Shown here: positions 27,001-30,000 of the stretch, piece by piece
How the letters are laid out: every line of letters begins with the position of its first letter
How positions within the stretch are numbered: position 1 is the first letter of the stretch
Origin: Escherichia coli
Lineage (GTDB): Bacteria; Pseudomonadota; Gammaproteobacteria; Enterobacterales; Enterobacteriaceae
Assembly: GCF_030013595.1 (NCBI RefSeq)
Contig: NZ_CP122772.1
Length of the DNA: 64,000 bases
Reading direction: 5' to 3' (one strand)
Position numbers: made by a program

Positions 27001-30000
27001 ATACAGAGATTAATCATCTCGAAGTTAAAATCGTTGAGAGAGTCGCAAGAAGAGCATCAAAGCTAAGGTTTTCTTATAAAATAGATAAAGAAAGTGAGGG
27101 CTTAGATATCAGAATACCATACGGTTTCAGAGGATAATTGCATAAACTTCGTTTTGAGATCGAAATGAGGTAGCTCATGGCTCAAATCTATCAATTCCCT
27201 CAGGGGGAAGAACGTGCTAAATTCAGGAAAGAAATTGCCAGGGAGCGTAAGAAACGTTTTGCAGTGAAAACAGGGAGCACTTTTGTTAAGTGGCTTGGCT
27301 GGGGATGGTTTTATCTTCGTCTTCTTGTCGCGAGTGTTTTACATTTTATCTTTGTTTTTGTGTTAGCCATTCTTGGTGCGTTTAAATGGGCTGTATTCTG
27401 GCTGGGTGGTATTTTGTGTGTCATCACTTGGTATCATCTCGATCACCAGTTATGGACGCCACAAAATCTGACTATACCGGTGATTACGGCAACCTGGATT
27501 TTGGGACTGCTGGCTGAGCCTCTGATGGAGCTGCTCAACAAAACTATGCCTTGGCACAAGTTACTTGTTCCCGAACCTGCGGACGAAAGCACCGAGAACA
27601 GTAGCGAGATAAGCCAGCAATGATGCTACTCAGCAGTTATGCCAGACCCTGCCTTTTCACTGCGATGCAGGATAGGGCAAACGCCGCAAAATGACGTCTC
27701 TGACGCCATTCTGCAACGTTTGCCCGGTGACCTACAGTCGGTTCTTGTCGGAGAATTTTATGGAATATCAGGTGAGAGAGTTTATTAACGAAAAATATAC
27801 TAAGGCTGTTAATATTTTAAAGGATAACCTTAAAGAAAACTACCATGTTTTTTATGGTGTGAGATTAATTGAGATTCTTTTTCCAGCCAGTGAGTATGGC
27901 ACTGATGCTTTCTTTAAAGAGTTTGAATTAATTAACAGTGTAATACTTCCATTGGTAATCTTTGATTTAACACAACGCAAGCCAATGATGATTATCAGCT
28001 TCGATAAGATACTTGATGCCAGTTTGTTGGAAGGAACAAATATTGTGGTTCTTGAATGTATTACCCTCGCTGATCTTCTGACAAATGATAACATTGATTT
28101 TTTATATAAAAGCTAAGAATCTCCTTTCAGTTTAAATTTTCTGCTTGGGTCGCCAAGTGTTATTGAGTCTACTTCATGTGAGTAATGAAGTGTATGATAA
28201 TGTGCTGGATTTTTCAGATAATCAGGGAGTGATATTATTTTTCCGCAGCTAATTGCAGAATGAAACCAGTTGCGGAATGTCTCGCTATTTGTTTTTAATG
28301 CATCTTTTGGAATAAATACTAATTTTATGTTGGAAACGTAATTAACAGGTTTAAGTATGGTATGTCTGTTTTGTCCAAAGTCTTTTAAAGCATCTGTAAA
28401 CTCGTATTCAGATGTATAAATTCTAGTTTCTTTATTAAGGGTTTTGATCTGGAATATGAATGAATAGTAATTCTTATCAAGTATTTCAACAGTGCCTGGG
28501 TCTATACTCAGTTGTTTAATAACAGCTTCTCTTTTATACTCTAACCCGTCTCTGACTGATTGATATACAACCATTGCTGCATGATGTGAACCACCACTGT
28601 TTGAAGCTACATATCGGTCAAACCAAGAATAATATTTAACATTAATAGGGTTGCGTGGGGGGAAACCTTCATGCTCAATGTGCCATATATTATCTTTCCA
28701 GTCTAAAATATTTTCAGCTTTCAGATTTTCGGCAGGATACATCCCCTCTCCCCAAGAATAAAGATCTTTGAACCAACTACCATTTATTACCTTGCTCCAT
28801 CCACAACCGAAACTTTTCGAGTCAGTCAGAGATTGTATTTTGTTAAAATCGAAGTCCAGAGAGTGTTTCTTATCTGTAGTTATTAAGTTGCTCAGAATTT
28901 CAGCCAGATCCTTGTCAATATATCTCAGTGAGTATTCGCTAAATATATTTTCAAGCTGCAATATGGTGTCTGCATCTGCTGTAGGTTTAAATAACTTAAT
29001 ATCAGCAAGATTTTTAAACGTTGCTGTGGTCAGTTTATGGTGATCTGTCAACCTGTAGAGGTCACAGATCAATTCGGTTAAATATCTCATAGATTTTCAT
29101 CCATGCTTCTATGGTTAGAATTTTGCAGACTCAAGCAACCAGTGATTCTTTATGTTTTCATCCTGGCTGTTGTACATCGCCAGCGCCGCTTTGAGAACGG
29201 TTGTTTTGCTCTGCCCTGTTCTGATAGCTTCAGCTTCCAGTATGTCCTCAAAATGGGCTGAAAGTCTGAAGTTCATCAACTTTGGTTTACCCACTACAGG
29301 CGCTCTGGTAGCGCCGGAGATAAAACGCGCGGTTTCTGCGTTTGTTGCTGGTTGCTGAGATTCATCGATGTTCGGACGGTTTAGTTTTAAAGCCATGACA
29401 ATTTCCCCTTGTACGGTATGCATTAATAGTAAATATCATACTATCTTTATATTATCTTTACAATGTAAATATTTATAGATGGTATTGATATTACTATAAA
29501 ATTCCAATTTCCTGCGCCACTAGTTCAATCTGTGCTTTCGCTGTTGAAAGGCTTGATGCCCGGCTAACGTCATGTACCCCTGCCCCTTCATTACAGGCGC
29601 TTTCATACACATCCAGCTCGGATATCCGGGTTTTAAGAGGTTGAATCCAGATGTTGTCCGAACGCAGTAATTTATCCAGATCAATGGCCGCTTTTCTGTG
29701 GCGGGGTTTCGCTGAGTTGATTCTGGTGAACAGCACCCACGGTACCAGGGCTGCGTTAGCTTTCTGAGCGATGCGGATTTTCTCTGTAACACTGGTCAGA
29801 GTTTCGCTTTCGAAATCAGAGGACGGCTTAACCAGTGTTACCACGATATCTGATACTGTCAGGGCGCTACGGAACTCCTGGCTGTCGTGGCCGGGGCAAT
29901 CGACAATGAGGACTTCACACAGCTTACTAAGTCGCTTAATTTCATTGCTGACGTTTCCGTAAGCTGCATGAACCGGGATAGTGAGTAAGCCGTTATCTGT

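Follow-up and report, generated by a model that had tools for sequence, protein, structure and literature searches.

Are the two tightly packed, convergent genes found near a partition locus of an Escherichia coli virulence plasmid the two halves of one accessory defence or exclusion system, as their preliminary description suggested, or simply neighbours? Both lie in the 64,000-nucleotide stretch of contig NZ_CP122772.1 that was analysed (hereafter, the window), within an 8.6-kb IncX1 maintenance module (23379-32018) carried inside an F-type virulence plasmid of pig E. coli. The small gene (27760-28116, + strand) encodes 118 aa and is identified below as ddp3 (for DNA distortion polypeptide 3; also taxD), and the large one (28113-29090, - strand) encodes a 325-aa protein of the DUF6685 family. 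As originally described, they overlap by their stop codons (+ strand, TAA at 28114-28116; - strand, TAG, written CTA on the opposite strand, at 28113-28115), and are flanked by the second replicon on one side (pir, 26301-27137) and the partition locus on the other (parA, 29494-30156). The replicon comprises a pir-type (gamma) origin with six 22-bp iterons (AAAGGTGGATGGGTACGCACTG; direct-repeat family D3, 25931-26156) upstream of the replication initiator gene pir/repX (+ strand), whose 278-aa product matches the IncX1 initiator WP_001050931 at 100% identity and has weak RepM/RepE matches in NCBIfam. It is followed by a bis-like gene (27177-27623, + strand, 148 aa), 99% identical to the gene located after pir in the IncX1 plasmid pSA02DT09004001_37 and named bis in pECTm80 (PMC3332091). 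Beyond parA, a gene for a serine recombinase (resolvase; 30519-31181, + strand) shows 100% identity to WP_000203396, the recombinase of IncX1.

Both open reading frames are real genes. Each is 100% identical to copies found on many database plasmids and has hundreds of homologues, and dN/dS values between IncX1 and IncX5 copies range from 0.18 to 0.43 across the two genes, with a value of about 0.2 for the DUF6685 gene, indicating purifying selection; by simple arithmetic, an open frame of 325 codons at 35% GC would arise by chance with a probability of about 1e-10. Their GC content (0.314 for ddp3, 0.352 for the DUF6685 gene) is indeed below that of the window (0.474), but this low GC is not peculiar to the pair because pir is equally low (0.361); the values for parA, the small ribbon-helix-helix (RHH) gene next to it and bis are 0.481, 0.463 and 0.456, respectively.

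The small gene can be identified as ddp3/taxD, which belongs to the core of the IncX backbone, and the view that neither gene resembles a housekeeping plasmid function therefore survives only for the large one, which matches nothing but Pfam DUF6685. The small product matches the NCBIfam equivalog DDP3 (NF041452) with 170.5 bits (E=1.3e-50; residues 1-116 aligned to all 116 positions of the profile), for a curated cut-off of 140 bits. The longest reading frame on the + strand (27691-28116) would encode 141 aa, but the internal ATG at 27760 is the better choice of start, since a GGAG motif lies 6 nt upstream, the RefSeq annotation has the 118-aa form, and a 110-bp repeat ends at this ATG. The gene is present in 1959 plasmid records and the order pir-bis-ddp3 is kept in IncX1, X3 and X5, in agreement with published descriptions placing ddp3/taxD after pir-bis in all IncX subgroups, linked to the repeat that bears oriT (PMC3402527, PMC3332091), and regarding it as a transfer auxiliary gene adjoining the second oriT (PMC3402527, PMC4222815, PMC3332091).

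The repeat itself (27656-27765) includes the ribosome-binding site and ATG of ddp3. Across its 110 bp it shows 96% identity to an inverted segment of an intact IncX1 plasmid (L032, 19834-19943) located directly 5' of taxA/ddp1, and its end coincides with an ATG common to ddp3 and taxA. It corresponds to the beta copy of the long inverted repeat of IncX plasmids, within which oriT has been placed (PMC3402527, PMC3332091), making it a candidate oriT-beta, and contains a hairpin (I5) with 24-nt arms (27675-27698 and 27702-27725). In other words, ddp3 occupies at the second oriT the mirror position of taxA, the former being read outward from the beta copy and the latter from the alpha copy. A common origin of TaxA and DDP3 as paralogues was considered and rejected, as the two proteins show no similarity. 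The window has a single copy of the repeat, and it lacks taxA, taxC and the IncX type IV secretion genes altogether, which leaves ddp3 an orphan here.

Does DDP3 act as a nuclease? The preliminary description had called it NERD/DUF2726-like, with a PD-(D/E)xK-like motif. The DUF2726 half of this assignment is supported at the family level: Pfam DUF2726 (PF10881) gives E=0.06 for the query alone, but is found at E≤0.001 in 7 of 22 relatives and at E≤0.1 in 18 of them (best value 6.3e-10), while Pfam NERD matches neither the ddp3 product nor any of the 22 relatives. A search of PDB sequences with the ddp3-family profile returned nothing meaningful. Similarly, the fold expected from such a motif is there, with an alpha-beta-alpha-beta-beta-alpha-beta core of the restriction-endonuclease type, but the catalytic positions are not: the DDP3 segment ILPL aligns with HFDF of DUF2726, placing a nearly invariant proline (Pro64) at the position of the Asp, and IISFDK aligns with AIELDD, placing Ser80 (Gly in relatives) at that of the Glu, these positions being set by an hhalign match that is weak by itself (E=0.011). 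The protein is best described as a divergent DUF2726 member whose restriction-endonuclease-like fold has lost its catalytic residues. The nuclease motif once put forward for mutagenesis is, in this respect, already degenerate in nature. Since both the catalytic Asp and Glu are replaced, nuclease activity is unlikely, and with Pro64 and Ser80 at these positions DDP3 is most likely a non-cutting DNA-binding or DNA-bending factor, a role to which its fold, its position and the R6K literature all point. On the same grounds, DDP3 would help the TaxA/TaxC relaxosome to open or distort the 110-bp repeat. The orphan copy in the window could at most contribute to mobilisation driven by an IncX plasmid resident in the same cell.

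The large protein, initially said to belong to no recognised family, indeed has no characterised relative, its sole match being Pfam DUF6685 (PF20390; E=2.2e-7, residues 153-265), which is also found at E≤0.001 in 29 of 33 relatives; the RefSeq protein WP_001269910, named DUF6685, is 100% identical to it. Searches against PADLOC, NCBIfam and PHROG gave no match, and neither did a search of PDB sequences with the family profile give anything meaningful. The structure model is confident and has no match in the PDB, so that the fold is predicted to be absent from solved structures; Foldseek against AFDB50 returned uncharacterised proteins only, together with one distant DUF932-named protein, a match for which the DUF932 literature gave no function. 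Foldseek also revealed a distant branch of the family in Pseudomonas, Campylobacter and Legionella, beyond the reach of profile-based protein search. No paper was found in a literature search on DUF6685. Judging from its 26 invariant residues, among which His, Asp, Ser, Arg and Trp abound, the product is most likely a soluble cytoplasmic enzyme.

To what extent do the two genes travel together? The DUF6685 gene is found in 468 plasmid records, against 1959 for ddp3, and occurs without ddp3 in about 17 other contexts, including plasmids, integrated elements and the vicinity of one prophage. Among 11 DUF6685 loci, a ddp3 homologue adjoins the gene in the IncX1-type loci only; in one other, a Xenorhabdus contig, a distant ddp3 relative lies 2.7 kb from DUF6685. 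A peptide-pattern scan of the genome collection recovered only five DUF6685 loci, its patterns being too specific, and tblastn against phage genomes gave no match. In other IncX lineages, the slot between the par operon and ddp3 is occupied by unrelated genes, which again had no PADLOC match; two genes of about 210 aa located there in CP093097 were considered as a split DUF6685 and rejected as unrelated. The idea that this is a plausible accessory spot is therefore sound as far as the slot is concerned, which carries variable cargo across IncX lineages, but no defence model matches either protein.

Could the two genes nevertheless form one system, the small product acting as a nuclease-like effector and the large one as its partner? 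The tight convergent layout, with an overlap kept between IncX1 and IncX5, the low GC of both genes, the nuclease-like fold of the small protein, and the uncharacterised nature of the large one, whose distant homologues sometimes lie near defence genes, are all in keeping with such a system. Yet their distributions are uncoupled, DUF6685 standing alone in many elements, ddp3 is coupled physically to the repeat bearing oriT, as a mirror of taxA, the catalytic residues of DDP3 are replaced, and PADLOC-DB v2.0.0, a check that had been suggested for both proteins, was run and holds no family matching either at E≤1; a joint defence or exclusion system is thus extremely unlikely. Because of the disparity in plasmid records, and because DUF6685 is so often found without ddp3, the two do not make a functional pair: ddp3, a most likely non-cutting transfer accessory belonging to the backbone, and DUF6685, an independent cargo gene, are probably neighbours through plasmid history rather than partners, although some lineage-specific interplay, for example through convergent transcription, may exist.

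If DUF6685 is not the partner of ddp3, is it that of the genes on its other side? The parA gene (29494-30156, - strand) encodes a 220-aa ParF-type partition ATPase with 99% identity to IncX1 ParA, matching NCBIfam ParA_partition with E=3e-26, below the model cut-off. It is followed by the RHH/CopG-type gene (yafA; ParG-like; 29115-29423, - strand), a 102-aa reading frame given as 93 aa in RefSeq, labelled a CopG family regulator in relatives and having weak CopG-like and RelB-like PHROG matches. Direct and inverted repeats of the TCTTTA type (D2, D5, I1-I4; 30170-30410) form an array upstream of parA, whose position makes it a candidate centromere or operator, and a further copy (29430-29474; families D2 and D5, inverted repeats I2 and I15) lies between parA and the RHH gene, together with promoter-like hexamers on the - strand (29469->29440 and 29463->29435); these repeats and hexamers may be regulatory. 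On this common strand, the RHH gene ends 24 bp before DUF6685 begins, with no terminator predicted on that strand, and a ParA gene occurs at 8 kb or less from DUF6685 in 5 of the 11 loci, as would be expected of a third partition component assisting or regulating ParA and the RHH protein. Such a role is nonetheless very improbable: IncX3 plasmids lack DUF6685 although their ParA has the same accession (WP_000516402) as that of the intact IncX1 plasmid, and they carry a near-identical RHH gene; the GC of DUF6685 differs from that of the par genes (0.35 versus 0.46-0.48); and many homologues reside in chromosomal islands, and one beside a prophage, with no par genes.

The DUF6685 gene would instead be independent cargo consisting of a single gene, lodged at the end of the parA-RHH operon, with which it is probably co-transcribed. 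What, then, might it do? From its genomic contexts, our guess is a role other than partition, either in plasmid establishment or in the conflicts that oppose hosts, plasmids and phages, be it defence, anti-defence or DNA-damage tolerance. Single-gene anti-phage defence or anti-defence, by an enzyme that would for example destroy or make a nucleotide signal, is possible if somewhat doubtful. It would suit an exchangeable gene of a variable par-tail slot, always carried by mobile elements, with enzyme-like invariant His, Asp, Ser and Arg residues, and whose neighbours elsewhere include QatABCD, BrxR, DndB, Abi_2, AAA_15 with DUF4435 and a TIR protein, an AAA_13 ATPase, and an Eco57I-type enzyme with runs of small co-oriented ORFs; it sits less well with the lack of PADLOC match, of phage homologues and of any conserved partner gene, and with the heterogeneity of these neighbourhoods, as any cargo of mobile elements tends to sit near defence genes. 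Tolerance of DNA damage, or an SOS-linked part in the DNA metabolism of mobile elements, alongside umuDC-type polymerases, is an unlikely function, despite the fact that, of about 17 distinct contexts outside IncX1, 3 have DUF6685 directly adjoining umuD-umuC, in three different arrangements, that it starts 25 bp after umuC and downstream of a LexA box in Vibrio crassostreae, and that SRAP and pol III theta genes are found nearby on Pantoea-type plasmids. Most DUF6685 contexts, including the IncX1 module of the window, lack umuDC, the LexA box of V. splendidus comes after DUF6685, none is found 5' of the gene in the window, and umuDC/rumAB regions are insertion hotspots for cargo. A bolder reading, possible but less likely than not, would make DUF6685 an enzyme with a fold unseen in solved structures, which would bring prophages, integrated elements and plasmids a new single-gene function, either in conflicts with phages, host immunity or rival plasmids or in damage tolerance on the side of umuDC, the tail of the IncX par operon carrying it as exchangeable cargo.

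Among the resistance genes disseminated by IncX plasmids are blaNDM, mcr-1 and tet(X4). The present outcome is mostly a correction, the locus being made of already annotated IncX backbone plus a DUF6685 gene, and not of a new defence pair. An inactivated nuclease fold set at the second oriT, in mirror image of taxA, offers a concrete and testable picture of how the second transfer origin could be served. The more open point is DUF6685, present on more than 400 sequenced plasmids, under purifying selection, and confidently modelled with no solved relative; its gene is a cheap knockout target, in a plasmid backbone that is small and well studied.

How does this locus compare with known systems? 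The closest counterparts of the small gene are DDP3/TaxD of R6K (IncX2) and the other IncX ddp3 genes, with which it shares a length of 118 aa, an above-cut-off DDP3 match, and a place after pir and bis next to the oriT-bearing long inverted repeat; it differs from them by its orphan state, deprived of the taxC relaxase, taxA, the alpha repeat and the type IV secretion genes. The R6K protein reportedly acts with DDP1 and DDP2 to distort the DNA of the alpha and beta origin repeats. With DUF2726 proteins, ddp3 products share the same core and a VRL(S/A)(E/D) motif, and some annotators label ddp3 homologues DUF2726, but the Asp of hDF has become Pro64 and the Glu of IELD a Ser or Gly. The partition genes resemble the ParF-ParG operon (TP228-type, IncX), with genes for a ParF-type ATPase and a small RHH protein sharing one strand and repeat arrays upstream; the described system consists of two genes and a centromere, whereas DUF6685 comes in addition here, is lacking in IncX3 plasmids that carry the same ParA, and is found in other contexts devoid of par genes. 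As for DUF6685 (PF20390), no difference in sequence sets the window protein apart, although the Pfam model spans only its residues 153-265, and it has a direct counterpart in orf15 of the IncX1 plasmid pECTm80, a 'conserved hypothetical protein' found at the same place after parA (yafB) and yafA (PMC3332091).

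Two convergent open reading frames (ORFs) occupy this region: one at 27691-28116 (+), in which an internal ATG at 27760, preceded by GGAG 6 nt upstream, gives the 118-aa form annotated in RefSeq (27760-28116), and one of 325 aa at 28113-29090 (-). Their stop codons overlap (TAA at 28114-28116 on the plus strand, TAG at 28113-28115 on the minus strand). The small gene has a GC content of 0.314 and the large gene one of 0.352, versus 0.474 for the whole window; among neighbouring genes, bis, the small CopG-type RHH gene (yafA), parA and the resolvase gene range from 0.46 to 0.48, and pir is low as well (0.361). 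Purifying selection acts on both (dN/dS 0.18-0.43 between IncX1-type and IncX5 copies), which, together with the ORF and GC data, confirms the preliminary description of a convergent low-GC pair with overlapping stops as an observation on the sequence. Both are also known to the last base from public plasmids: the 1.6-kb region is 100% identical in many E. coli plasmids from pigs, pP1525 being one (typed IncFIA/IncFII/IncX1, with hly and F18 fimbriae), and pB207_I is another plasmid carrying it.

The small gene is the known IncX backbone gene ddp3, or taxD (PMC3332091). Scored against the NCBIfam equivalog model 'DNA distortion polypeptide 3', its product reaches 170.5 bits (cut-off 140); in IncX1, IncX3 and IncX5 the gene lies 3' of pir and bis, and a tblastn search detected it in 1959 plasmid records spread over IncX lineages. 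It has been hypothesised to be a mobilisation auxiliary gene beside a second oriT, itself located within a long inverted repeat (PMC3402527), and its product has been described as an auxiliary transfer protein (PMC4222815). The beta copy of this repeat (27656-27765), the sole one present in the window, where the alpha copy was not found, contains a hairpin with 24-nt arms (27675-27725) and matches, inverted and at 96% identity, positions 19834-19943 of the intact IncX1 plasmid pSA02DT09004001_37 (locus L032 coordinates), immediately 5' of taxA/ddp1. The common segment stops precisely at the start codon of either gene, position 27760 corresponding to the taxA start at L032 19839, so that ddp3 reads out of the beta copy in the way that taxA reads out of the alpha copy. 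Ribosome-binding site and start codon are common to the two genes, whose proteins are unrelated in sequence. Family match, IncX synteny and oriT repeat thus place in the IncX backbone a gene previously taken for an accessory one.

The nuclease-type fold proposed earlier for the small protein stands, its active site does not. DDP3 as a single query matches Pfam DUF2726 weakly (E=0.06), while 7 of 22 family members do so at E<=0.001 and 18 at E<=0.1 (best 6e-10), and some homologues are already annotated as DUF2726; it is these family-level matches that bear out the fold. When aligned, HFDF of a bona fide DUF2726 protein becomes ILPL in DDP3, with Asp replaced by Pro64, nearly invariant across the family, and AIELDD becomes IISFDK, with Glu replaced by Ser80 (Gly in relatives). 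We infer that DDP3 is a non-cutting DNA-binding protein, a predicted role that fits its name, i.e., distortion of DNA at the repeat. The gene was already known, but its structural interpretation is now clearer.

Over 8.6 kb (23379-32018), the window and the maintenance module of the 37.7-kb plasmid pSA02DT09004001_37 share 99.6% identity. This module comprises, in order, small ORFs, stbD/stbE, iterons, pir, bis, the oriT repeat, ddp3, the DUF6685 family gene (the large gene), the RHH gene, parA and the resolvase gene. The IncX genes taxA, taxC and those for type IV secretion are absent from the window. The module lies within an F-type virulence plasmid, flanked by two inverted IS91-like 410-aa ORFs (21959-23191 (+) and 32205-33437 (-)), out of six in the window, with which it could form a composite mobile unit. 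Apart from the module, the window holds another and more diverged piece of IncX backbone, a truncated type IA topoisomerase gene (20148-21557 (-)) covering residues 249-717 of the 717-aa IncX1 TopB at 89% identity. Just past the resolvase gene, an Rfam AgrB antisense RNA match (31496-31583 (+), E=1e-10, 70 bits where the gathering threshold is 40) adjoins a gene at about 31337-31420 (-) annotated as a dinQ type I toxin in near-identical plasmids; together they would form a type I toxin-antitoxin locus of the dinQ/agrB kind.

Do the two convergent genes work together, as suggested by their initial reading as a defence or exclusion pair? In IncX5, the same tight arrangement with the identical 4-bp overlap is retained, which we read as shared ancestry. 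Elsewhere, the association dissolves: across 11 loci, a ddp3 homologue adjoins DUF6685 in IncX1-type loci only, and lies 2.7 kb off in a Xenorhabdus contig. In IncX3, ParA carries the accession seen in the intact IncX1 plasmid and the RHH gene is nearly identical, yet two small ORFs take the place of DUF6685 (L011, 2028-2590). Unrelated genes likewise fill this slot, between the RHH gene and ddp3, in other IncX lineages, such as two proteins of about 210 aa in CP093097 (L033, 3885-5165) and small membrane proteins in pEC00704_6 (L034, 4237-5669); none of these alternative genes matched PADLOC or NCBIfam. With 1959 plasmid records for ddp3 versus 468 for DUF6685, DUF6685 found without ddp3 in many settings, and IncX3 lacking DUF6685, the defence-pair reading fails: the two do not form a pair, and the large gene belongs to an annotated family in a variable slot. 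Contig SFGN01000043.1 ('MAG: Lachnospiraceae bacterium'; locus L012) has an IncX1-like backbone too; its DUF6685 and ddp3 copies are 88% and 92% identical, respectively, and two pir-like genes stand in tandem at L012 9918-10760 and 10781-11620. Mis-binning of an enterobacterial plasmid probably accounts for this contig.

What interest the region has lies with DUF6685. The large protein matches the Pfam family over residues 153-265 (E=2.2e-7), as do 29 of 33 relatives, and the identical RefSeq protein WP_001269910 is named 'DUF6685 family protein'. Its pECTm80 counterpart is orf15, a 'conserved hypothetical protein' 3' of parA (yafB) and yafA (PMC3332091); no mention of DUF6685 was found in the literature searched. 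Aligning 33 homologues (30-90% identity) revealed 26 invariant residues and a further set kept in at least 90% of sequences. Conservation covers the motifs PTAD (36-39), SKSFG, INGSW, WGxGMYP, HIExEGF (from 137) and GGSHH (166-170), and residues D130, N134, W156, R159, Q177, Y303 and H305, a pattern that looks enzyme-like.

DUF6685 is probably co-transcribed with the par genes, since it starts 24 bp 3' of the RHH gene and in the same orientation, the minus strand has no predicted terminator-like site, and the 70-bp parA-RHH gap holds minus-strand promoter-like hexamers and a copy (29430-29474) of the TCTTTA-type repeats arrayed upstream of parA (30170-30410). Repeats and hexamers in this gap may constitute a second operator or promoter for the RHH gene and DUF6685. 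DUF6685 is unlikely to take part in partition itself, because its GC content differs from that of the par genes and IncX3 has the same ParA without DUF6685.

Among the settings that lack ddp3, DUF6685 adjoins Rpn and an AAA_13 ATPase in Serratia plasmids, QatABCD in a Rheinheimera island and an integrase gene in a metagenomic contig. It accompanies H-NS, MobA, AAA_15+DUF4435 and a TIR protein in a Pectobacterium integrated element, lies near BrxR, DndB and Abi_2 in an Aliivibrio plasmid, and follows topB, hns and one hypothetical gene in Proteus pHI4320-type plasmids; it is also carried by a Vibrio nigripulchritudo plasmid and by Pantoea and Kosakonia IncFII-type plasmids. Clustering of neighbouring ORFs in 11 loci gave no conserved partner, and the recurring neighbours are plasmid backbone genes (ParA in 5, resolvase in 4, H-NS and TopB in 3 each). 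Defence genes are among the frequent neighbours. Another recurrent neighbour, umuD-umuC, stands out: in 3 of about 17 distinct contexts it directly adjoins a distant DUF6685 homologue, each time arranged differently, namely convergent and beside phage tail genes in Cronobacter (L021, 8001-10826), int-umuD-umuC-DUF6685 in Vibrio crassostreae (L023, 6312-9062), and DUF6685-umuD-umuC in a V. splendidus conjugative element (L026, 7001-9831). A LexA box precedes umuD in all three, and would cover DUF6685 in V. crassostreae only. As these umuDC and defence-gene associations are anecdotal and could reflect mere cargo hotspots, we propose no more than that mobile elements carry DUF6685 as a single-gene cargo whose product is soluble and probably an enzyme, and which would most likely act in establishment or conflict. 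In a marine metagenome element (L035, 1-12026), DUF6685 is one of many small ORFs lined up in the same orientation, with ParB_N, prokaryotic E2-like and ThiF genes ahead of the series and an Eco57I-type enzyme gene behind it, a layout that resembles the establishment regions of conjugative elements.
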